Below the pieces are notes generated by a model that was given only the letters and a program-made list of their open reading frames with translations, ran no database searches and was not told where the DNA came from. Of a DNA stretch of 64,000 bases, positions 2,106 to 58,595 are shown one piece after another (the stretch's first letter is position 1; each line of letters opens with the position of its first letter). This DNA is from a virus (Duplodnaviria > Caudoviricetes), in IMG/VR virus record IMGVR_UViG_3300005686_000008, one strand, 5' to 3'. A program made the translations under genes and the position numbers.

Positions 2106-2381
2106 ATGATTACTCAAGCCCCAATTTGGAGTAAGAAAGACTCAAATGGCTACTTCTGTCATAAAGAAGTAATACATGACGACTTGTTGCCATGTCCTTT
2201 TTGCGGTGGCGAGGCGGATATAATGCTAAGCGGAGATGCTTGGCATGCAAGGTGTAGAAAGTGCTTTGCGAAGTCTGGATATCAGAATCTTCCTGCTCGT
2301 TGGAATAGCAATAAGTGTCTTGATACTCACTTGATCAAGAAAGCGGTTAAGGCTTGGAATAAGCGTGTAAAGAAATCTTAG
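2106..2381 (+). CDS. Lar-family restriction-alleviation-like Zn-ribbon protein
   Basis: LLPCPFCGGEA...CxxC...AVKAWNKR. Confidence 0.75.
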   Translation: MITQAPIWSKKDSNGYFCHKEVIHDDLLPCPFCGGEADIMLSGDAWHARCRKCFAKSGYQNLPARWNSNKCLDTHLIKKAVKAWNKRVKKS

Positions 2382-2410
2382 TGTTGGTTGAAAAGCCGAT
2401 AACTAGGTTT

Positions 2411-2554
2411 AGCTAGTCGAATGGAATGGGTTAACATTATAAGTTCAACTCTTATCCCCGCCTCTTAAAACTATGGCGGGGTAGCCTAACGGTAAGGCAA
2501 CTCTCAAAATCGCAAGATTAGAGAGCTAACCCCAGACCAACAAACATACTAGCT
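2411..2554 (+). ncRNA. YrlA-type Y RNA (1)
   Basis: Terminal stem AGCTAGT/ACTAGCT with GTCGAATG motif; permuted tRNA module: T arm, then loop-closed CCCCGCC/GGCGGGG acceptor, then D arm TAGCCTAACGGTAAGGC. Confidence 0.8.
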
Positions 2555-2557
2555 TAT

Positions 2558-2632
2558 GCTCGCTTACCAAAATTGGACAAATGGCTCTGCCTGCAAAGCA
2601 GAAGTGTACAGGTTCGAGTCCTGTAGCGAGCT
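2558..2632 (+). tRNA. tRNA-Cys(GCA)
   Basis: GCTCGCT/AGCGAGC acceptor, CT-GCA-AA loop, U73. Confidence 0.9.
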
Positions 2633-2634
2633 TT

Positions 2635-2769
2635 TTACAATAAGCCGAACGGAATGGATTATCGAAGGTTCGACTCCTCCATCCCTCCCTAAGAGTCATA
2701 GCCTTGGGGGTTCATAGGGATACGCCTAGGTGGTTCAGGCATTCCAAACCAATACCTTGTTTATTGTAA
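2635..2769 (+). ncRNA. YrlA-type Y RNA (2)
   Basis: TTACAATAAGC/GTTTATTGTAA terminal stem, GCCGAACG motif, T arm GGTTCGACTCC, then ATCCCT...AGGGAT and D arm GCCTAGGTGGTTCAGGC. Confidence 0.8.
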
Positions 2770-2772
2770 TAT

Positions 2773-2859
2773 GCTCCTGTGCCAGAGAGGTTGAATGGAC
2801 CTGCCTGCAAAGCAGACTCGCCTTGTTGCGACACGTTGGTTCGAATCCAACTGGGAGCT
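2773..2859 (+). tRNA. tRNA-Cys(GCA) with long variable arm
   Basis: CT-GCA-AA loop, U73, extra arm TCGC-cttgtt-GCGA. Confidence 0.8.
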
Positions 2860-2862
2860 TTT

Positions 2863-3102
2863 ATGAGAAAGATGAAACTGAAAGAAGCTATTGAGATCTT
2901 ACAGGTCTCTGAAGACAAACAACAACAAGCCATTGCAAAGTTACTTGACGATGCAAGAGACAAGATGAATGCATTGTTTGAACTTGCTTCTGGCGAGTAT
3001 CACGGCAACGAAGGTAATGAAGAAAACGAAATAGACGATATACTTGCAAAGGCAGCAGAAGTTCTTGAAAGACCTTATACTAGGCTTGTTCAAGACGAAT
3101 AG
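2863..3102 (+). CDS. Hypothetical protein (start corrected to 2863)
   Basis: ATG 3 nt after tRNA-Cys. Confidence 0.65.
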   Translation: MRKMKLKEAIEILQVSEDKQQQAIAKLLDDARDKMNALFELASGEYHGNEGNEENEIDDILAKAAEVLERPYTRLVQDE

Positions 3103-3111
3103 AATTTTGAT

Positions 3112-3187
3112 CGCGGAGTTGACTGGAATTGGCCCCAGCGTGAGCCTCATAAACTCAACTATACAGGTTCGAATCCTGTCTCCGCTA
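3112..3187 (+). tRNA. tRNA-Met(CAT), initiator-like
   Basis: CT-CAT-AA loop, unpaired C1:U72, CGCGGAG acceptor; anticodon stem imperfect. Confidence 0.8.
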
Positions 3188-3190
3188 TTT

Positions 3191-3472
3191 ATGAAAAACA
3201 TACAGATAAAAGGCACAGACAAGTCTTTGCTTTTGATAGGATTGCTCAACTTTCTGCTTTTTCAGTGGTTCTTTGTGAGATTGGCGTTAAACGTTGATCC
3301 TCCGATAAAGGATTACGTTACGAAAAGAAGGCCGCTATACTTGTTGAAGTGGGTTGTTCCTCTTTCGGGCTGGTTTGGGATTCCTTTTTTTCCTAGAAGC
3401 TACAAAATGGTCTTACTTCTTTCAGGAATAGAAGTGTGTATTGCTCCTTATGTAAGAAAAGGCTTTGACTAA
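3191..3472 (+). CDS. Hypothetical membrane protein (start corrected to 3191)
   Basis: ATG 3 nt after tRNA-Met; hydrophobic segments. Confidence 0.6.
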   Translation: MKNIQIKGTDKSLLLIGLLNFLLFQWFFVRLALNVDPPIKDYVTKRRPLYLLKWVVPLSGWFGIPFFPRSYKMVLLLSGIEVCIAPYVRKGFD

Positions 3473-4409: not shown

Positions 4410-4483
4410 GGGCTTGAAGTTCAATTTGGTTGAACATTCCCCTCGCACGGGAAAGGCAGGGAGTTCGACTCTCCCCAGGTCCA
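4410..4483 (+). tRNA. tRNA-Ala(CGC)
   Basis: G3:U70, ttccc-CT-CGC-AC-gggaa. Confidence 0.88.
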
Positions 4484-4491
4484 CTTGTTAT

Positions 4492-4562
4492 AGCCTGATA
4501 GTGTAACGGTAGCACTAGTGACTCTGACTCACTCAGTCTAGGTTCGAATCCTAGTCGGGCTA
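4492..4562 (+). tRNA. tRNA-Gln(CTG)
   Basis: agtga-CT-CTG-AC-tcact; canonical T arm. Confidence 0.88.
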
Positions 4563-5179
4563 CTTTCAATAACATCACTTATGATGTCTAAAAACTTTTT
4601 AGCCCTGTCTTCTTTGAAGTAATCAAAACTAGAAGTATCTATGATACAAAGTTCAATACCGTTTTCTAAACAGGCTTGAAACTTTCGTTGGTCATTGTTT
4701 TTGATTGAAGTGAGTTTTTCAGGACCATGAATAGGTTCATAATGGTAAATACCATTGAGTTCGAAGGCAATCTTTAGACTCGGTATGTAAATGTCAAGTT
4801 CTGAATTGATAGCATCTTTCCTGTTAAAATGAAACTCAAGATCAGTAAATTTATCTTTGAGTTTTTCTTCTAACCATTTTTCTAGCTTACTTCTTCTTAT
4901 TCCATGTGTTTTGTGAGCGTTGTTGTATTTGGCAGCACAGGATTTTGAGCAGAAAGCTTTATTTGATTTTCTGTTTTGAGAAGCAAGTCTTTTGAAAGAT
5001 TTTTGACAATTTTGACATGTGAAACATTGGGCTATAGAGTTTTTTGTTCGATAATCAAAATGGCATTTCCTACTGCAAAATCGCAGAATGGGATTGTGTT
5101 TTCTAGATCCTGATTCAAGATGCGGATCGTTTTCGTATTCTTGCAAACAGTTAGCACAAGTGTTTTTGTAAGTTTTCAT
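4538..5179 (-). CDS. Zn-finger plus PD-(D/E)xK (Vsr-like) putative homing endonuclease
   Basis: Repeated CxxC...FCSxxC modules; ELDIYIPSLKIAFELNGIYH; its 3' end overlaps tRNA-Gln antisense. Confidence 0.8.
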   Translation of the reverse strand: MKTYKNTCANCLQEYENDPHLESGSRKHNPILRFCSRKCHFDYRTKNSIAQCFTCQNCQKSFKRLASQNRKSNKAFCSKSCAAKYNNAHKTHGIRRSKLEKWLEEKLKDKFTDLEFHFNRKDAINSELDIYIPSLKIAFELNGIYHYEPIHGPEKLTSIKNNDQRKFQACLENGIELCIIDTSSFDYFKEDRAKKFLDIISDVIESSPTRIRT

Positions 5180-6329: not shown

Positions 6330-6455
6330 GTAATCGTAGCTCAGAGGTAGAGCATCCGCCCCAAAATCTTAGGTAATGATCAGGTGAAGTACAAGCTTGG
6401 GAATCTAAGGTCTTGGACAATCGGAAGGTCGGTGGTTCGAATCCATCCTTCTACT
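6330..6455 (+). ncRNA. tRNA-like RNA with a ~55-nt hairpin inserted in the anticodon loop
   Basis: Canonical D arm TAGCTCAGAGGTAGAGC and T arm GGTGGTTCGAATCCATC; weak acceptor stem. Confidence 0.65.
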
Positions 6456-6507: not shown

Positions 6508-7258
6508 ATGAGTAGGTACAATAACGAATGGAACAAGGGCCTCCAAAATAAGGATCAGGAGTTGCTTTGACCCGTCTTCTATCCTTATTGAGATAAGGGC
6601 AGGCGAAGGCGGCGAAGATGCTAAAAACTTTGTTCATGAACTCGCCTCTATTTATGCGAAATACGCAGTAAGAAAGAACCTAAATGTCACGATAGTTGAT
6701 ATTGATAACGGTTCTTCAACTCTCGAAATCAGCGGTAAAGATTCATTAGCCGCTTTCGAAAACGAATCTGGTAAACACGTTGTTCAAAGATGCCCTCCTT
6801 CCGAAAGAAGCGGACGTAGGCATACATCAACTGTTTCCGTTGGCGTTCTTCCTCTTTTTGCTTTCAAATCAGCAGTTATAAGAGAAGAAGATATCGAAAT
6901 AACGTTTCAAAATGCTTCCGGCCCCGGAGGGCAAGGAGTTAATACATGCAAGAGCGCATGTAGAATGAAACATATTCCAACAGGGATAGCAGTCAAGTCT
7001 CAAGTTCATCGTTCTCCTCAACAGAATAAGTCTCATGCATATGCTTTGTTATGCGGAAGAGTGCAAGAACAGAAGTTTGCAGCGCAGAATAAAGAATATG
7101 CCGCAAGAAGAAAGAAAATTCTTGGAGATACTGGTAGGGGAGGCGCTAGAAGAACCTATTGTTTCTACAAAGGTTTTGTTTCCGACCATGTTACTGGTAA
7201 AAAAACTCACAACATCAAAGAAGTCGTTAAAGGAAACCTCGGCTTATTGTCGAACTAA
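6508..7258 (+). CDS. Class-I peptide chain release factor homolog (~249 aa) expressed via a +1 programmed frameshift at CTT-TGA-C (6565-6571)
   Basis: AAGGAG SD and ATG 6508; 20 codons to AGGAG-TTG-CTT-TGA-C; +1 frame reads DPSSILIEIRAGEGGEDA...FENESGKHVVQRCPPSERSGRRHTS...SGPGGQGVN..., continuous with ORF 6965-7258. Confidence 0.9.
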
Positions 7259-50502: not shown

Positions 50503-51336
50503 TAAATGGATAACATACTGTTTGACATTCGAGGCGATAAAGGGCAGTTCAAAGCCGCAATGGATTATATCAAATCTATTGCTCCAGGCGGCAAAGCCGT
50601 TCGCTATGCTATTGTTCCCACAAAAGGATTGGTTCTTTTCTGGCATGAACAAGATGATAAAATTGTTAAACTAGACTTCCCGTATATAACAGATCCTAAA
50701 TGGAATAAGGATACTGCCAAATCTTTTAATGTTGAACTTAAAAAGTTTGATATTCCTTGGGAGAAGTTTGTAGAGGCGTGGGTTTTTTCTACAGATCCTA
50801 CTCAGTTTGAACTTGATGAATGGGAAAGAGACCTAGAAGATTTTGATGGTAGCACTGGTAATGGTTTTAGAATAACTTGCGATACATGGGGTCATGTTGG
50901 TGGAAACCATTATGCATTTGCTATCATAAAGCCGATTTTTGCATGGTATGGCAAATAAAAGGAATTGAAATATGAGTATTGGAACCTCAGAAGCAAAGAG
51001 TATGCTCAAGAAATGGAACAGCCTTCAAAAGGTTGCTGATAAGCTAGGTCTTTACATTTCTGATGAATATTCAGATCAAGACTATGAATATGTAGTTGTC
51101 CCAAAGAATATGAAGAGGCATCTTCCTGTCCTTATTGGTCTTCATGATCAAAATGGGTTCCGCAACAATTTCCCAATTTGGTATCTTGAAAATATGGATA
51201 GCATTTTAGACTTCCTTGGAGGCATTGCGCTTTCTCAAGGGAAAGTCTTGACTGTAGAAGATAACGATCATGACAAATGGATTCTTGCAGATCCTGAAAA
51301 GTTTAGCGCTAAAGACCTGAACAGGGATTGATATAA

Positions 51337-51410
51337 GCCCCCGTAAGCTCAATGGTAGAGTTAGGAGTCTCTAAAACTCTTTGTTGCAGGTTCGAGTCCT
51401 GCCGGGGGCG
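51337..51410 (+). tRNA. Amber suppressor tRNA (anticodon CTA)
   Basis: ggagt-CT-CTA-AA-actct; GCCCCCG/CGGGGGC acceptor; canonical D and T arms; G73. Confidence 0.85.
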
Positions 51411-51413
51411 TTT

Positions 51414-51626
51414 ATGGATTTCAAGTATTTAGAACGAAAGCATGGGAGGGCTTTTGTTGTTCAATTGAGAAAAGATTTCAAGGATTTTGAAACTCATATT
51501 AACAATGGAGGCTTTGTTCCCGGCGGAGGCTGGTGCAGCTGTCACGAAAGATATGACTGTCCATGCTGGAAAGAAAGATGGCCTGACCTTGCAAACGAAC
51601 CTTATCCAAGAAAGAAACAATTATGA
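51414..51626 (+). CDS. Hypothetical protein (start corrected to 51414)
   Basis: ATG 3 nt after the suppressor tRNA. Confidence 0.6.
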   Translation: MDFKYLERKHGRAFVVQLRKDFKDFETHINNGGFVPGGGWCSCHERYDCPCWKERWPDLANEPYPRKKQL

Positions 51627-52947
51627 TTTATGCATTTGCATGGGATTGCTATTCTAATCAGCCTTGGCTCTTTGTAGCTAAAGACGAACAAGAAATGCTT
51701 GAAAAGCTAAAGAGAGAGTTCAAAGAGATAGGTAATACTCTCAAAGAACTAAAAGAAAATCTTCGCAAGTCTGATTTTGGGCAGGGGTCTAGGGGTGGAA
51801 ATTTTGAAATCGTAACCCCAAGAGAACCAAAATGAAATTTGAGATAGAAGGTAAAGTTCTTATTGCAAATCAACGGCAAGTAAACGGCCCGGATACTTGT
51901 CGGGAGTTAGATATTACTTACCTGTGTTCCATGCAAGATGCTGATGGCGATTTTATTGGAAATGATAATATCCATATTTCTCTTCCTTATAATATGAAGT
52001 TCAAAGAATCTGCTTTGATGAATATGGAAGGTAAAAGGATTAAAATAACAGTTGAATTGGAGACAGCGTAAATGTACACAACTCTTTCTCTCAAACAAGT
52101 TGACGAAGTTTTCAAGAACGATGGTCTTATTTTAATCATTCTTCATGAAAAACATGGGACTCGTAACGTTGTATCTGAATCTTCTGATGGTTTTTTCAAG
52201 TTCTTTCTTGAACTTCTTAAGGACCGCAAAGATTTTGGCTACTTCCATGAGCCTGATGAACCTCAGAGTCCAAGCATGTCAGAAGATGCTGCTAATGCAT
52301 TACCAGCTGGACCTGTCAAGAAAATGGCTTTGGCAGAAATTGAAAACTACAAGCAAAGTCTCAGGTTCTACAAAAATGATAGAAACGAGTTCTTGACTGT
52401 CAATAAGGCGCTGGAAGAGGGAAATGGTCGTCTTGCTTATTCTATACTTAAATCTCGTTCCGATATGGGAGCTGAGTACGAAGAAATGACAGTTGAAGAG
52501 CCGGAGTATGCCTAATGGTTAAGACAACTATTGTTGAAGTGAGTCAGTTTCTTCCTCCGAATGGTAGAAGGATTGTGGCTCAAGTGGAACTCCCGTCTCA
52601 TATTAAAGAAAAATACGAATCTATTATAAGTAGCGGATGTAGACTGACTTATGAGGTTCTTGGCAATGGCGTGGCTTCTATGACAATAGAAGAACCCGCT
52701 CTTGGCGATTTCGTGATTAGGCTATCTCCGTCTGGTCAAAAAGCCGATTTGGTTCTTACCAAAATGATTGAGTCCTTTAACCAAGAGGAATTCGATAAAT
52801 GGAAGAACCAAAGAAAACAATTCATGTAAAAGATTCCAAATCCGCCAGCGAACAAAAAACTCCGCAAGGCGGCAAATATCACAAGTATATCTTTAAGAAA
52901 ACTCGCCCAAATAGGTTTTCTGCTGCCAAAAATAATAGGCGAGATCA

Positions 52948-53895
52948 ATGACAAAATATGATCTTTACAAAAGAAATGAAAAAATGATAAGGGAAGAATG
53001 GTTCAAAAACCATATTCCTGAGCTTGTCATTTTTCAAGATGATTTTATCAAAATCAAATGGAAAGAACCCGGTACATGGAATATGGCCGTTGTTTACTAC
53101 ATTGACTGTAAGATGGCTTATCTTATGGTTGCTGGTGATCTTGGAGAAGCAACTTATCAATGGTCAGCCCCGATTAGTCTTGATTTCGTCGGCGGATGCA
53201 ACTTAGATTACTTCAATGGCAAATGCAGAGCGAGTTCATGCGGAGAACGAGGCCAAGAGTGGAGTCAGGAAGTTGCAGAAGATTGGGTTCGTTCCTATAT
53301 TGAAGATCATACTCTTGGAGAAGATCAAGGCGATTCTATTTTCGAGTCTTTGTTTTCAGATGGATATGTTGAAGGTCTTCTCAAAGAAAAAGACCCAGAG
53401 ATTGCTCGCTTCTATACAGAAGAAGACTACAAGAGTTGGCGAGAGATTTCTAGAGAAGAAAAAAACAGGTTTATTGCGATTGCCAAAGAATATCTAAGCA
53501 ATCTTGCTAAGACTTCTGAGTGGAAGAAGTTTAGTAAGGTTGATTATCGCAGAGAACTCATTGAAAAGCAAGAAAAGTTTGAGGATTTAGGCCCTGACGC
53601 TATTGGCGCTTGCGAATCTGAGTTTTCTTGGCTTAGGTGGATAGGTGATAATGGATACGAGTTCTTTGGTGATGACTACTACGAGTTTGGAGATATTGGA
53701 CGCACCATATCTCTTCGGGTTCAATCTCACCTAATTGGACTAAAAATGATTCGCGAAGGTATACTTGCCGGCAAGTATATGAATCCTAGTACCAGATGTC
53801 CCTGGCTAAAGTTTTCGAATTGGTTCAGGGGGAAGTTCAAAAAAATCACAAAAATCCGTGGTCCCAGGCTAAACTTTCTGCGGAAAAGCCGATAG
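52948..53895 (+). CDS. Hypothetical phage protein
   Basis: 315-aa ORF with LMVAGDLGEA motif. Confidence 0.65.
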   Translation: MTKYDLYKRNEKMIREEWFKNHIPELVIFQDDFIKIKWKEPGTWNMAVVYYIDCKMAYLMVAGDLGEATYQWSAPISLDFVGGCNLDYFNGKCRASSCGERGQEWSQEVAEDWVRSYIEDHTLGEDQGDSIFESLFSDGYVEGLLKEKDPEIARFYTEEDYKSWREISREEKNRFIAIAKEYLSNLAKTSEWKKFSKVDYRRELIEKQEKFEDLGPDAIGACESEFSWLRWIGDNGYEFFGDDYYEFGDIGRTISLRVQSHLIGLKMIREGILAGKYMNPSTRCPWLKFSNWFRGKFKKITKIRGPRLNFLRKSR

Positions 53896-53904
53896 AGTAA
53901 GAGT

Positions 53905-54063
53905 AGAGTTGTTCGGAAAGTCTGGTATATGTCTCGTATAAACCCTTTTGAAGGCGGGGCAAGCCGCCGCCCGTAAGAGGGGTAGGGTGTAAAAGTACAC
54001 CACCTATGATCAGGGTGGAAGTTGGCTCCCAACCAGCGTTTACCAGATTTTTCGAACAACTCT
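53905..54063 (+). ncRNA. Unassigned structured RNA or leader upstream of the Pth gene
   Basis: ~23-bp closing stem AGAGTTGTTCGGAAAGTCTGGTA/TACCAGATTTTTCGAACAACTCT. Confidence 0.65.
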
Positions 54064-54081
54064 GCATAAAAGGAGTTCAAA

Positions 54082-55281
54082 ATGACGTAGGTACAAACAC
54101 AACCCGTATACTTGTATGTTCTCGTAAGGGAAGACCTTACACCCGTTTCTCAAGTCGCCGTTCAATCGGCGCATGCGGTTATTGAGGCCATTCGAACCTT
54201 TGCTCCCGGCTAGAACCAGGAACATCCGCATCTTGTTCTTCTTTCCGTGAAAAACGAAGAAGAGCTACTGAAGGCCCATGATCGCCTTCAGTATTTTGGC
54301 ATTCAGGTCGCCAAGTTCCAAGAACCTGATTTACTTCGCAAAATTGATACAAAACTTCTTGTAGACCGAAGTAATCCAGTTTCTAAACTGATCAATGGTC
54401 ATCGAGAGTTTAGCAATGTTGCAAGTTTTGCAACATGGAACACAATTTTCTTTGGTATACCCCAAAGAATTGTCAGTTCTATCAATTCCATTATAAACAA
54501 ACCCTCTTTTGCTAAATGGCTTAAGTATTGTTGCTGGTTTTTGACCACAGTATATGCAATCGCTTTGTGTAAGCCTCTTAATATCTTCAAAAGACAAATT
54601 AAAAGATTTGTTTCGTTCTTTTGCACTCTTCTTGTAACTAGCAAACAAAATATTGAAAGGTCCATCAGGATTCCTGATCGAAGTTTTCCAACTACATCCG
54701 CAATTATCGGAAATTCCGCTTCTGAGATTGTGTCCAGAAACAATTTTTTGAGTTCCGCAGGAACATTTACAAAGAAAATACCTACCTCTTCCAGTTATAT
54801 GAGAGGGGCGAGGAACTACAGAAATGACCTTCCATTTCCCGTAAACTTTGCCTGTTTCATCTTTTCCAGTGTTTTGAGTTTGACCAAGGCAGCCACAACT
54901 TTTACTTGTTCCATTGCGAAGACTCTTGCCCATTACCATACGTTGTGTTTTATTAGGACATTGGCATTCGCAAAAGAAAAACTTTGCACTAGAAACAATC
55001 CCTTCAGGTTTTTTGCCTTCAGAAATAACCTTCCATCTACCAAAGATACTACCAATAGGAATTTCAATTTTCATATCCCCTCCAATAAAGTAGTATCGAC
55101 TGTTTCTTCAATAAACAATAATTGCGATAGTTACGAAATAACAGCTATCGCTACGGAACCGCTTCCTGCGGACTCCAAGCTGCGCCGCAAGTTTAGTTGC
55201 TACAACCTTCTCAATTTAGATCCTGGCGAAACCTCTCAAAAAGAGACTGAGCTATCCCCTGCGCGAAAGGAAACTATATGA
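54082..55281 (+). CDS. PTH2-like peptidyl-tRNA hydrolase with in-frame TAG at codons 3 and 44 and an ~800-bp in-frame insertion
   Basis: AAGGAG SD; MT*VQTQPVYLYVLVREDL...QVAVQSAHAV...G*NQEHPHLVLLSVKNEEEL...FQEPDL [insert] YEITAIATEP. Confidence 0.8.
54331..55074 (-). CDS. HNH-type homing endonuclease inserted antisense in the Pth gene
   Basis: Two FGRWKV...CxCxC...SCGC modules; CIYCG...NGIDRTDNSLGYTKENCVPCCKTCNIAK; GGAGGGG SD. Confidence 0.9.
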   Translation of the reverse strand: MKIEIPIGSIFGRWKVISEGKKPEGIVSSAKFFFCECQCPNKTQRMVMGKSLRNGTSKSCGCLGQTQNTGKDETGKVYGKWKVISVVPRPSHITGRGRYFLCKCSCGTQKIVSGHNLRSGISDNCGCSWKTSIRNPDGPFNILFASYKKSAKERNKSFNLSFEDIKRLTQSDCIYCGQKPATILKPFSKRGFVYNGIDRTDNSLGYTKENCVPCCKTCNIAKLSMTIDQFRNWITSVYKKFCINFAK

Positions 55282-56327
55282 ACAGTTTTCCCGTCATTGT
55301 TATCAGCCATATTCAAGATTGCGAACTTGGAAGTTATTTCAGAGGCGAATGCGATTGGAGGCACTGCAAAAGCGCCAACATGGAAACGGGCATTTTCAAC
55401 TCTCTTGAAGATATTGCCAATCATATCGTAAAGCTTGACAGACAATTCTTTGATGAAGTTCAAAGAACTAACTTCTATAGCGAGTTTGAAGAAAAGATCG
55501 CCAGGAACATTACCAAAGAACACGACCCAAAGTTTGAATATTCTCACTTGATTATTTCCAAGAACAGTTTTTCTGATGATAACTTCGGTATCAGCGGAGA
55601 AAACGGGACCATTAATACTCCGACAGACTGGGAATACACGGATGAACTTCTGAAACTCGTTGTTCAGAAAAAGAAAACCGCAACAGCAAATAGGCTTGCA
55701 AATGAGGAGAAACAAAAGATAGAAAAGGAGCAAAAGCAAAAACAACAAGAACAGCAAGAGCAAGAAAGAATGCGTTTGTTAAATGAGGAGCATGATAAAC
55801 AAGAATATGCTCGTCTCAAGGAAAAGTACGAAAACAAGTAACCATTTTTAGAAAGGAAAACAGTTTATGACTACGACTCAGAATATTCAGAAGAACAAGT
55901 TCAATCAGGACGCTTATCAAAGCCGTTGGGGTTTCCATGCTTGCGATTACCAGACTTTCCTCAAGATTAAGAAGCTTTATGGCTTCTATTGGAAGGCTCT
56001 TCGTCGTAATGGCGAATGGAATCGCTGGAATAGGAAGGAGCCTCAAAATAGGATTCTTCGCAAGTGGTATCGTAATGCTCAGGGACAAAAGACTGGATAC
56101 GAGATTGTTGGGCCTAAGCCTGAACCTAAGCTGTATCCTGTTTTCGGTGCTTTGAATTATGTTCTTCAGGGAGACCATGCTCTGAAGGCTATGGGAGTTG
56201 TTGATGCTTACTTGACTGCAAGGCATCCTTATCCAACTGCCGAAGAGGTTCCTCAACTTGGATTGACAATTGAGCAGATCAACAATATGCTCGCTCATCT
56301 TGAAGAGTTTGAGGCTCAATAAATATA

Positions 56328-56706: not shown

Positions 56707-57897
56707 ATGTTGAAGATTAACACAATGCTTGCAGTTCTGGGTATGGCGCTCGCTACAACGAGCTATGGCCAGACGGCGGTTTCTAATGAAGACCGCTCTT
56801 TGACTACGGCTCTTATTGCTGATGCTCAGACCAGAACTGGCTGCGACAGCAATGGTGTAACCGGACATGATTCGTCCGGTTTCTTTCTTTCCGGCAATGA
56901 CGGTTTTAGGATGAATATTGGCGGCGACTTCCAGTTCCGCTATACCTATAACAACAGCGATGATGCTGATGCAGAGTATGGGTTTAATATTCCTCTTACC
57001 CGTCTTCGTTTCAACGGAACGATTCATAACAGTCTTGACTTTATGATCGAGCCGGGCTTTAACGATGACAGCGGCGACGTAGACCTGTATAATGCCTTCA
57101 TTGGTTGGCAGGCTATGGATAATGGAAGGTTGCAGTTTGGTCAGTTCCAGCTTCCTTTCTTGAGGGAAGATAGCACTCCCGACCGCTTCCAGCTTGCTGC
57201 TGATAAGTCCATCATGTCTTACATCTTTGGTCAGGGATACTCCCAGGGCGTTCAGTTTGCATATGACGCTGGCGATTTCCGCATGATTGGAGCCTTCTCT
57301 GACGGATTCAATTCTGCCAATACGGATTACACAGATCCTGCTGAGGCTGATTATTCCCTGACTGCAAGGGCTGAGTATCTTGTTGCTGGATCTAGGTCTG
57401 ATTTCTCAGACTTTACTGCTCAACAGAATCAGCAGAACTCCCTGCTCTTGGGCGGCGCTGTAAACTACCAGGACAGCGACCTTCAGAGTAATGTATTCTC
57501 CTATACGGGAGATGTTTCTTGGGAGAACAGCGGATGGAATGCCTATCTTGCTGGCGTAGGTCGTAATATGGACGATCTTGGCGAGAGCTTCAACGATTAC
57601 GGCGTTGAGCTTCAGGGCGGATATAGGGTTACTGAACAGATTGAGCCGTTCGTTCGTTACGATGCAATCTTTGCTGATAGCGCAAGGAATCTTGCGAACG
57701 ACGACATGAACTTCCTTACCGCTGGCGTAAACTATTACCTTTACGGTCATGCGGCCAAGTTTACTGCTGATGCGGTCTGGTCTCTGGATGACACTTCTGG
57801 TCTTAGCTCTTTGGGCGATTTCTCTCATACGGGAGTCCTCGGTTCACCTGAAGACAATGAGATCACTCTCCGTCTCCAGTTCCAAGTTCTCTTCTAA
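56707..57897 (+). CDS. Outer-membrane porin (OprO/P-like, Phycisphaerae-like)
   Basis: Signal peptide, ADAQTRT, QFRYTYN, GQFQLPFLRE, GVNYYLYGHAAKFTAD, C-terminal LRLQFQVLF. Confidence 0.85.
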   Translation: MLKINTMLAVLGMALATTSYGQTAVSNEDRSLTTALIADAQTRTGCDSNGVTGHDSSGFFLSGNDGFRMNIGGDFQFRYTYNNSDDADAEYGFNIPLTRLRFNGTIHNSLDFMIEPGFNDDSGDVDLYNAFIGWQAMDNGRLQFGQFQLPFLREDSTPDRFQLAADKSIMSYIFGQGYSQGVQFAYDAGDFRMIGAFSDGFNSANTDYTDPAEADYSLTARAEYLVAGSRSDFSDFTAQQNQQNSLLLGGAVNYQDSDLQSNVFSYTGDVSWENSGWNAYLAGVGRNMDDLGESFNDYGVELQGGYRVTEQIEPFVRYDAIFADSARNLANDDMNFLTAGVNYYLYGHAAKFTADAVWSLDDTSGLSSLGDFSHTGVLGSPEDNEITLRLQFQVLF

Positions 57898-57951: not shown

Positions 57952-57971
57952 GCTTGATGCTATAATGTCTT

Positions 57972-58595
57972 ATGTCTATCTTTCAATATCAATGCACTAT
58001 TTGCAAGAAGTTTCACGATTCCATATCTGAGGCGTCCTCTTGTAAAGAAAACTGTCTCAAGAACAAAGACAGCAGGAATGTCATTGATATATACAAGTAT
58101 TGGAAAACAGAGGCAATAAAGGCAGACCTTGACAAGAAGCGCCACAATTTTTCTGTTTTGATTACAAATCACTTCCATGACTTCAATATTGGGGCTGTTA
58201 TTCGTAACGCAAACGCCTTTCTCGCTTCCAAGGTTTATATATTGGGCAAGAAAAAGTTTGACGCAAGAGGGGCGGTTGGAACAAACCACTATGAGAATCT
58301 GGTGAATATTGATTCGATGGACGATTTACCTCTTGGGAGCGTTATTATTGGATTTGATGATGTTCCTAAAGCAAAGCCGATAGATAGCTATTTGTGGAAT
58401 AAATCTCAACATATTATCATGTGTTTTGGGCAAGAAAGCGTTGGTCTTACCGAAAATGTCCTAAGTCGATGCAATGAAGTCTTGTATATAAGACAGTATG
58501 GCTCAGTAAGAAGCCTAAATGTTGGTTGCGCAAGCGCTATTGCAATGTTCTCGTATTGCCAGCAACTTATCGGAGGACAAAGGCTTGAAAAATAG
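57972..58595 (+). CDS. SpoU/TrmH-family RNA methyltransferase
   Basis: FNIGAVIRNANAF, FGQESVGL, GSVRSLNVGCAS. Confidence 0.9.
   Translation: MSIFQYQCTICKKFHDSISEASSCKENCLKNKDSRNVIDIYKYWKTEAIKADLDKKRHNFSVLITNHFHDFNIGAVIRNANAFLASKVYILGKKKFDARGAVGTNHYENLVNIDSMDDLPLGSVIIGFDDVPKAKPIDSYLWNKSQHIIMCFGQESVGLTENVLSRCNEVLYIRQYGSVRSLNVGCASAIAMFSYCQQLIGGQRLEK

Follow-up and report, generated by a model that had tools for sequence, protein, structure and literature searches.

Several described systems make use of stop codons that lie within or ahead of a reading frame. In Lak, crAss-like and other gut phages, a suppressor tRNA encoded by the phage allows genes with in-frame stops to be translated in a host that uses the standard code, and such recoding has been proposed as a post-transcriptional gate (bioRxiv 10.1101/2021.08.26.457843). 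Xanthomonas phage XacN1 also has amber suppressor tRNAs, in a genome that ends genes with TAG (PMC5852040). In prfB, the gene for the release factor RF2, an early in-frame stop sets the synthesis of the gene's own product, whereas in the bar minigenes of phage lambda a Shine-Dalgarno (SD) sequence precedes a stand-alone AUG-NNN-stop, and the dipeptidyl-tRNA that is dropped from such two-codon minigenes is the classical substrate of peptidyl-tRNA hydrolase (Pth) (PMC2490762). A second type of this enzyme, PTH2, is carried by jumbo phages of groups 2 and 3, where its proposed role is peptidyl-tRNA hydrolysis in ribosome rescue (Iyer et al. 2021, PMC7824862). Here we describe a Pth2-like gene with two in-frame amber (TAG) codons, in a 64,000-nucleotide (nt) stretch, referred to below as the window, of a 494-kb phage genome (IMG/VR record IMGVR_UViG_3300005686_000008). 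With a probability that we put at about 0.8, this gene and an amber suppressor tRNA(CUA) would form a two-part module, in which synthesis of the hydrolase homolog is gated by suppressor activity.

The gene lies on the + strand. An AAGGAG SD at 54070-54075 is followed by a 6-nt spacer and then by ATG (54082) ACG TAG (54088-54090) GTA CAA, i.e., an SD and a two-codon "minigene" (54070..54090) that is in frame with the Pth2-like open reading frame (ORF), an architecture also seen in relatives. The same frame is open from the TAG at codon 3 onward, and a second in-frame TAG occurs at codon 44 (54211-54213, + strand), in a loop between helix 1 and strand 2. The read-through product is MT-X-VQTQPVYLYVLVREDL..QVAVQSAHAV..PG-X-NQEHPHLVLLSV..KFQEPD. 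This N-terminal part of the ORF (54082..54330, codons 1-83) ends with the invariant Asp83 of "EPD", and an allele free of the insertion described below is identical up to 54330. There the frame is broken; it continues at 55133, and the C-terminal part (..EITAIATEPLPADSKLRRKFSCYNLLNL.., 55133..55281, + strand), in the same frame as the N-terminal part, ends with a TGA stop at 55279-55281, as established by alignment to uninterrupted homologs and by tblastn of the nearest relative, P0002, against the phage's own genome. Translation of the locus with table 11 yields short fragments only. A first-pass annotation, made from the letters alone, had reported the SD, the ATG ACG TAG, a PTH2 motif and the TAG at 54211 in a predicted loop, all of which we find as it stated them. 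It had also ended the feature at 54333, which is a real boundary of a fragment, but not the end of the gene: the fragment ends there because an HNH cassette is inserted after the catalytic Asp codon, and this insertion had been missed. Sampled words of the stretch were all present in four sequencing runs of one study, its likely source, and a contig from one of those runs showed 0 differences from it. No RNA data set was listed among the runs that contain this DNA.

When TAG is read through and the N-terminal 90 aa are used as the query, residues 11-81 match the Pfam family PTH2 (PF01981) at 27.3 bits (cut-off 23, E 4.4e-6), over profile positions 3-81 of 115; the first-pass annotation had proposed this search as a check on its assignment, which is borne out. 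A profile of 42 family members matches Pth2 chains in the PDB end to end (24bt_A, 1e-9; 2zv3_A, 3e-7; also 1rzw and 1rlk). The AlphaFold2 (AF2) model of the uninterrupted homolog P0002 has a pLDDT of 89.2 and a pTM of 0.82, and in a Foldseek search of the PDB with this model the top 11 matches, and 14 of the top 15, were solved Pth2 structures or structural-genomics homologs of the Pth2 fold, mostly with TM scores of 0.6-0.7. In the predicted fold, codon 3 falls in an unstructured N-terminal tail (residues 1-8) and codon 44 in a loop (residues 41-49). The residues D83, Q28 and H31 are invariant or nearly so, and align to the Asp of D-A-G and to the Q..HA of Pth2, to which, as to the Gly-Lys that precedes Q..HA, catalytic roles are ascribed from work on S. 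solfataricus Pth2. By sequence and predicted fold the phage family is Pth2, an assignment of fold and family that we regard as secure. Neither a second Pth2-like copy nor a bacterial-type Pth1 was found in the phage genome. The Pth2 domain of phage XacN1 and of Stenotrophomonas phage CM1 is preceded in the same protein by a conserved domain of ~180 aa (L056, 964-1500; L078, 2440-2990); Pfam gave no match for the N-terminal domain fused to Pth2 in XacN1 or in loci L043 and L045. The XacN1/CM1 domain has an H-D-I-G-K-like motif, which may be HD-like.

A protein search returned ten relatives, nine of them full-length, with 58-86% identity over the first 100 residues; P0002 was 99% identical over the aligned N-terminal part. 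All eleven clade relatives whose DNA was read (about 58-99% identical) have TAG at both places, i.e., at codon 3 and at codon 43 or 44 (L001, L002, L003, L006, L007, L008, L010, L011, L070, L071 and L073). In ten of these both TAGs occupy identical alignment columns, and in L010 they have the same codon numbers. The relatives' contigs yield the database proteins only when TAG is translated as Gln. Over the gene, the pairwise ratio of nonsynonymous to synonymous substitution (dN/dS) is 0.07-0.31, with dS values of 0.1-2.3, mostly around 1. The codons beside the TAGs vary synonymously (GGC, GGT or GGA before the second TAG; ACG, ACT or ACC at codon 2). Between the first TAG and the conserved strand Y-V-L-V-R there is no start codon and the changes are mostly synonymous, so that the ATG after the SD is the start, and the TAG lies inside the translated frame. 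When the TAG columns were aligned to TAG-free homologs, no consistent residue was found opposite them. Both TAGs are conserved under purifying selection, and are products neither of chance nor of decay; the first-pass annotation had already called them unlike random decay.

A scan of IMG/VR gave 50 loci at 32-77% identity; each frame was read through TAG, and the nucleotide contexts were compared. A Met-x-TAG after an AAGGAG-like SD recurs in L012 (ATG TCA TAG) and, with different second codons, in L014 (TTG), L015 (TCA), L016 (AGT), L025 (TCC) and L039 (CAT). In L018, as in Yersinia phage fHe-Yen9-03 (L077, LT960552; Met-Ser-His-TAG), the TAG is at codon 4 (Met-x-x-TAG). Among other phages, Acinetobacter phage vB_AbaM_ME3 (L057, KU935715) has ATG ACT TAG, Ralstonia phage RsoM2USA (L058, MG752970) has ATG TTG TAG, and a 735-kb phage (LR756501) has Met-Ser-TAG together with a TAG in the loop. 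In XacN1 ORF364 (L056, AP018399) an SD and ATG AAG TAG lie in frame 21 nt upstream of the annotated Met; phage CM1 shares the Met-Lys-TAG, which in both precedes the extra N-terminal domain, but lacks the annotated XacN1 start. TAG recurs at a second site, the loop that follows helix 1, in the window clade, L016, L019, L026, L031 and LR756501. In a maximum-likelihood tree the genes with an early TAG stand on many separate deep branches, and there are two derived clades without TAG. The suggestion of the first-pass annotation that the two-codon position is special is thus supported, and the check that it named, conservation of TAG at codon 3 in homologs, holds well beyond the window clade.

Across the family codon 2 may be ACG, ACT, ACC, CAG, TCA, TCC, AGT, TTG, CAT or AAG. 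We had considered the ACG at codon 2, a codon for a rare tRNA-Thr, as meaningful, and dropped this idea on finding ACT, ACC and CAG in clade members. In contrast to this freedom, the base after every TAG in the family is A or G (background purine frequency 0.61; P about 1e-3 with 14 lineages). A purine in this position is reported to favour amber suppression. An early TAG also hides the gene from annotation. The coding sequence (CDS) ME3_195 of ME3 is annotated from an internal Val, no CDS is annotated for the Pth2-like genes of RsoM2USA and fHe-Yen9-03, and the XacN1 gene is probably truncated in GenBank as well. The Lak megaphages, which have been described as TAG-recoded (bioRxiv 10.1101/2021.08.26.457843), have a TAG-free Pth2-like relative; in Prevotella phage Lak-A2 (L076, MK250019) it is at locus 2234-3297, with a TTA tRNA 0.7 kb upstream.

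An amber suppressor tRNA with anticodon CUA, a canonical cloverleaf and discriminator G73 was called by ARAGORN at 51337..51410 on the + strand (Rfam tRNA, 54.8 bits, E 7e-11; a search of 50900-51900 against Rfam returned tRNA only). It is the sole CTA tRNA among the 71 tRNAs of the genome, and lies 2.7 kb upstream of the Pth2-like gene, apart from the main tRNA arrays. The phage tRNAs nearest to it in sequence are those for Lys(CTT) and Trp(CCA), at 76% each; the suppressor tRNAs of the relatives are diverse and mostly have A73. The association of gene and tRNA extends across the family, a point that the first-pass annotation had missed: about 30 of 45 distinct loci have a tRNA(CTA) no more than about 3 kb from the Pth2-like gene, usually as the nearest tRNA and often abutting the gene. 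Its place differs between groups. In many genes of the "MK-LYVLVRKDL" type it begins 0-30 nt past the stop codon, in Met-x-TAG lineages it is 36-450 nt upstream, and in the window clade it is 2-3 kb upstream, where every clade locus with an upstream flank of 2 kb or more has it. All five cultured phages with an early TAG have a CTA tRNA, at 0.4 kb upstream in ME3, 3 kb downstream in fHe-Yen9-03, 13 kb away in RsoM2USA, about 100 kb away in CM1 and in the terminal repeats of XacN1. The only subfamily without nearby tRNAs ("EEKPPAQYVLVRKDLPV..") is also without TAG. Opal suppressors occur as well: tRNA(TCA) directly follows the Pth2-like gene in L055, where it replaces the CTA tRNA (4478-4550), and in L043, which has both (TCA at 4525-4596). 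For the L047 record, a narrow pattern search for a CTA tRNA found none, which is not evidence of absence. The first-pass annotation had pointed to the CTA tRNA as the natural reader of the TAGs; the linkage supports this, and we infer that the phage tRNA(CUA) reads them.

In the window, the gene is interrupted by a cassette of 802 nt (54331..55132, - strand) that consists of an HNH homing-endonuclease gene (54331-55074, 247 aa) and a 5' leader with the SD GGAGG. The protein matches the HNH endonuclease family phrog_374 (E 1.5e-21). Contigs from two other metagenomes have the empty site, with an exact joint running from 54330 through CGCAACA to 55133 and giving ..D R N N E I T A I..; the 802 nt take the place of 7 nt immediately behind the invariant Asp83, so that the gene is longer by 795 nt, or 265 codons. 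In the empty-site alleles the 5' flank is identical and the 3' flank differs at 17 places over 83 nt, a pattern that homing with co-conversion would produce. With an HNH protein and presence/absence polymorphism at one precise site of a conserved host gene, the cassette qualifies as a free-standing HNH homing endonuclease. Among HNH relatives in IMG/VR, only that of L006 occurs in this context; those of L059 and L060, from other settings, have nothing but Cys-rich repeats in common with it. We also considered a group I or group II intron and an intein, and rejected them. Searches of 53700-55600 against Rfam (E up to 1) gave no intron, riboswitch or other family, and the HNH ORF, read in antisense, accounts for 744 of the 802 nt. 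The first residue of the host-strand peptide is Leu in the window and Arg in L006, not the Cys or Ser usual for an intein, and the peptide is modelled at low confidence.

The cassette leaves the host frame open. On the + strand the insert is in frame and stop-free, which would give a full product of 399 aa. The codons of the HNH gene are in register with those of the host frame on the opposite strand, and its own stop (TTA on the + strand, 54331-54333) adjoins the Asp83 codon. The HNH gene has no TTA, CTA or TCA among its 10 Leu and 24 Ser codons (P about 6e-4 by phage codon usage); other long genes have 1-20 of these codons per 247. In L006 the same site is occupied by a gene for an HNH protein that is 66% identical, again without a stop on the host strand; this gene has 16 Leu and 21 Ser codons (P about 3e-4). 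Between the window and L006 the Pth2 parts have a dS of 1.6 and a dN/dS of 0.12, and the C-terminal part is intact in both. In an AF2 model of the 399-aa product, the Pth2 halves are assembled at a pLDDT of about 90, with the insert at low confidence (pLDDT 30-78). We conclude that a mobile endonuclease cassette has here become adapted to leave the reading frame of its host gene intact, which may either serve a usable hydrolase or merely avoid polarity on downstream genes.

Upstream of the SD, alignment of the upstream regions revealed a promoter-like motif (CTAAAC, 18 nt, TAGAGT) at 53866..53897 on the + strand, its role as a promoter being judged from the sequence only; a generic promoter scan did not list it. 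Its counterpart in relatives, CTTGAC or CTAAAC followed by GATATACT or GATAGACT, stands directly before the SD. In the window, a ~160-nt structured element (53903..54065, + strand) comes between the two, with a minimum free energy of -80.8 kcal/mol and a closing helix of about 25 bp. This element is also present in L007 and L011 and absent from L002, L003, L006, L008 and L010. The window and L007 have different sequences in the closing helix, with complementarity kept in both; the element is present in a single copy in the genome, and has no Rfam match. No consensus structure emerged when the eight upstream regions were folded as an alignment, since the element is present in just three.

Downstream of the Pth2-like gene are a phosphate-selective porin homolog (Porin_O_P in L002) and an SpoU-type RNA methylase (56707-57897 and 57966-58592), in an order common to the window and L002. 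Elsewhere in the window, at 6509-7258, there is a class-1 release-factor gene with PCRF and RF-1 domains, a GGQ motif and a much shortened N-terminal domain. It has a prfB-type frameshift site (AGGAG..CTT TGA C) at 6559-6571, and the codon-recognition tripeptide of its product is P-P-S, compared with P-x-T in RF1. A tRNA-like sequence at 6330-6450 (GTAGCTCAGAGGTAGAGC ... GGTTCGAATCC), with ~50 extra nt mid-sequence, was not called by ARAGORN and could be an intron-containing or disrupted tRNA. ARAGORN did call a tRNA with a four-base anticodon (aggt) at G000:C1:149451-149532, about 5.7 kb before the start of the window and between tRNA-Thr and tRNA-Asn, possibly a frameshift-suppressor-like tRNA or a miscall. 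In other phages, tmRNA genes occur near Pth2-like genes (L038, 1219-1594; L053, 1852-2183).

If the module works as we propose, a ribosome would start at the strong SD, make fMet-Thr and meet the UAG. Without charged suppressor tRNA the dipeptide would be released or dropped; with tRNA(CUA), charged by a host synthetase, read-through would occur at codon 3 and would be needed again at codon 44. Output of the hydrolase would then track phage suppressor activity, in the window clade roughly as its square. The steep response to two ambers envisaged in the first-pass annotation would apply to the window clade, L016 and the 735-kb phage; it does not carry over to most other lineages, which have one TAG. 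On two-codon minigenes, as length shrinks, drop-off rises and termination by release factors slows (PMC2490762). Because termination slows on shorter minigenes, codon 3 would be where the suppressor competes best with RF1: termination would be slowest on the two-codon ORF, and a failed attempt would cost a dipeptide only. The first-pass annotation had also suggested a role for the Met-Thr minigene as such, but sequestration of one tRNA of the bar kind is unlikely because codon 2 varies freely. A toxic minigene of the lambda bar type was rejected too: the ORF runs on in frame into a conserved protein, and ten different codons are found at position 2. The gene and the tRNA lie close together on one strand, and co-expression of the two is probable, so that the gate would act as a sensor of functional suppressor more than as a timer. 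The purpose may be to match the level of hydrolase to that of the suppressor, either to clear the by-products of suppression or to restrain the suppressor. In a feed-forward version, the hydrolase would clear peptidyl-tRNA that is made as a by-product of suppression.

Several observations weigh against such a gate. Many members that adjoin a CTA tRNA, of the "MK-LYVLVRKDL" type, have no in-frame TAG, and because of these members gating has to be ascribed to one part of the family and not to the module in general. Neither GlnRS/GluRS nor PylS was found encoded in the phage genome. A narrow pattern search found no CTA tRNA in the L014 record, which is not evidence of absence, and the L025 record is only 13% complete. 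The Gly-Lys that stands before Q..HA in solved Pth2s is missing from the phage family, which has a 2-residue gap at this point, and for this reason hydrolase activity and substrate are putative, unlike the fold. Finally, 265 extra codons separate the two halves of the window copy at the catalytic Asp, which may leave this copy inactive.

That the locus is a decaying gene with two nonsense mutations might be suspected from one small gene having two stops and an insertion, and from its appearance under table 11 as short fragments. However, eleven relatives have the identical two TAGs at a dS of about 1 and a dN/dS of 0.07-0.3, and the early TAG is kept across the deep family tree; because homologs keep the early TAG and dN/dS is low, the signs of a pseudogene that the first-pass annotation had specified are not seen, and we consider decay almost certainly wrong. 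Nor does the gene look like an unremarkable member of a genome that reads TAG as sense throughout (code 15), even though the phage encodes a CTA tRNA and a release factor, and public gene callers translated the small contigs of the relatives with TAG as Gln. The phage uses the standard code. Under table 11, 92% of the 494-kb genome already falls within ORFs of at least 100 aa; the coding gained by freeing TAG does not exceed that gained by freeing TGA or TAA; and TAG terminates 58 of 472 long ORFs (about 12%). The flanks of the relatives also look standard-code, none of 14 neighbouring called genes in L002 and L003 having an in-frame TAG. Genome-wide reassignment, which should leave many in-frame TAGs and TAG unused as a terminator, is very improbable in view of these results. 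Genome-wide scans, of coding potential on both sides of stops and of early stops after starts, found no excess of TAG, and their best candidates for other amber-bearing genes were ordinary gene boundaries or antisense frames. As far as these scans tell, insensitive as they are (they missed the Pth2-like gene itself), the Pth2-like gene is the only amber-bearing gene in the genome. Quite improbable, too, is a two-codon ORF that serves as a leader of its own (minigene or start-stop-like upstream ORF), with a true stop at codon 3 and the hydrolase starting downstream at a non-canonical codon. ATT, a rare start codon, does come directly after the TAG in ME3, RsoM2USA, L025 and L073, and downstream starts are annotated in GenBank for ME3 and XacN1. 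However, the codon after the TAG is mostly a non-start codon (GTA, GTT, GTC, GGT, GGC, AAC, AAT, ACT or ACC), the sole SD lies before the ATG, CM1 keeps the MK-TAG of XacN1 but not its annotated start, and a leader would leave the TAG at codon 43 or 44 unexplained.

Two further explanations leave the amber gate in place. By one, insertion of the HNH cassette at the catalytic Asp would have destroyed the enzyme, so that the window copy is dead in a family that is otherwise gated and its open frame over the cassette says nothing of hydrolase function; we consider this somewhat unlikely. The 265 antisense-derived codons directly after D83 are modelled with low confidence; the genome has no other Pth2-like copy and no Pth1; and HNH-free alleles occur in other samples, where their identical 5' flank means that the insertion can be recent. 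On the other hand, the + frame is stop-free over the cassette both in the window and in L006 (P about 6e-4 and 3e-4), in which the HNH proteins are only 66% identical, the C-terminal part is intact in both, with a dN/dS of 0.12 over the Pth2 parts, and AF2 still assembles the two halves. The other explanation adds to the gate a negative feedback of the prfB kind: the enzyme would hydrolyse aminoacyl- or short peptidyl-suppressor tRNA, and so keep suppression at a steady level in a genome where TAG still serves as a terminator. A more active suppressor would thus yield more of its antagonist, and the enzyme would act on the suppressor tRNA as RF2 does on its own UGA. It would fit a gene that is tightly linked to the suppressor tRNA and also needs it, and a divergent Pth2, without Gly-Lys, whose substrate could have changed. 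Stop-sensing autoregulation would already be in use in this genome, at the CTT TGA C site of the release-factor gene, and unlimited suppression should be costly because 12% of long ORFs end in TAG. However, the TAG-free members also lie beside the tRNA, and no translational loop is possible in those, while canonical Pth2 acts on N-blocked aminoacyl-tRNA rather than on aminoacyl-tRNA; such feedback seems to us unlikely. The first-pass annotation had proposed a feedback device made of the minigene and read-through, and this part of its reading is not supported. More broadly, the Pth2-like protein could be a dedicated partner of phage suppressor tRNAs, a self-measuring controller whose synthesis, through the conserved Met-x-TAG start, would report suppressor activity at the one codon where RF1 is weakest, and which would tune the suppressor or clean up after it, and so a tRNA-based analogue of prfB autoregulation. 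We offer this as a speculation, and a doubtful one; if true, it would make the Pth2-like protein an unrecognised part of the phage "code-change" toolkit.

The gated module that we favour has several consequences. Many jumbo and huge phages with the standard code carry amber suppressor tRNAs without an identified target, as the XacN1 paper states outright (PMC5852040), and the adjoining Pth2-like gene would be a specific, conserved and testable one. Several cultured phage-host pairs carry the module, so that it is directly testable. Met-x-TAG after a strong SD is a fixed architecture that standard gene callers miss. The module would also link peptidyl-tRNA recycling, minigene kinetics and phage stop-codon recoding, three topics usually kept apart, and may represent TAG reassignment at an early and gene-specific stage.

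The gating of genes through read-through by suppressor tRNAs of phages is of an already known kind. What is new is its restriction to a single gene, the fixed positions of the TAGs, the linkage of gene and tRNA, and the identity of the gated gene, none of which we found in the literature searched. In the recoding gut phages, many late, structural and lysis genes have scattered stops and TAG is depleted as a terminator, whereas here TAG is kept as a stop, and one small tRNA-linked gene has TAGs at fixed positions (codon 3 and one loop); the paper on those phages names no hydrolase, the word having 0 occurrences (bioRxiv 10.1101/2021.08.26.457843). The PTH2 of jumbo phages belongs to the same protein family as the gene in the window, but was described without reference to in-frame ambers or to any connection with suppressor tRNAs (0 occurrences of "suppressor" in PMC7824862). 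For XacN1, reading through 18 annotated amber stops led its authors to no target (PMC5852040), whereas the SD and ATG AAG TAG upstream of the annotated start of ORF364, conserved in CM1, came to light here. The bar minigenes stand alone and need a particular rare tRNA; the two-codon ORF of the Pth2-like genes has the same SD and AUG-NNN-stop layout, but runs into the frame of the hydrolase, with codon 2 free. The comparison with prfB concerns control. Both are genes for termination or recycling factors in which an early in-frame stop would set their own synthesis; prfB uses a +1 frameshift and its product acts on the gating codon, whereas the Pth2-like gene would use in-frame read-through by a tRNA, and its product would act on the gate only under the feedback explanation given above.

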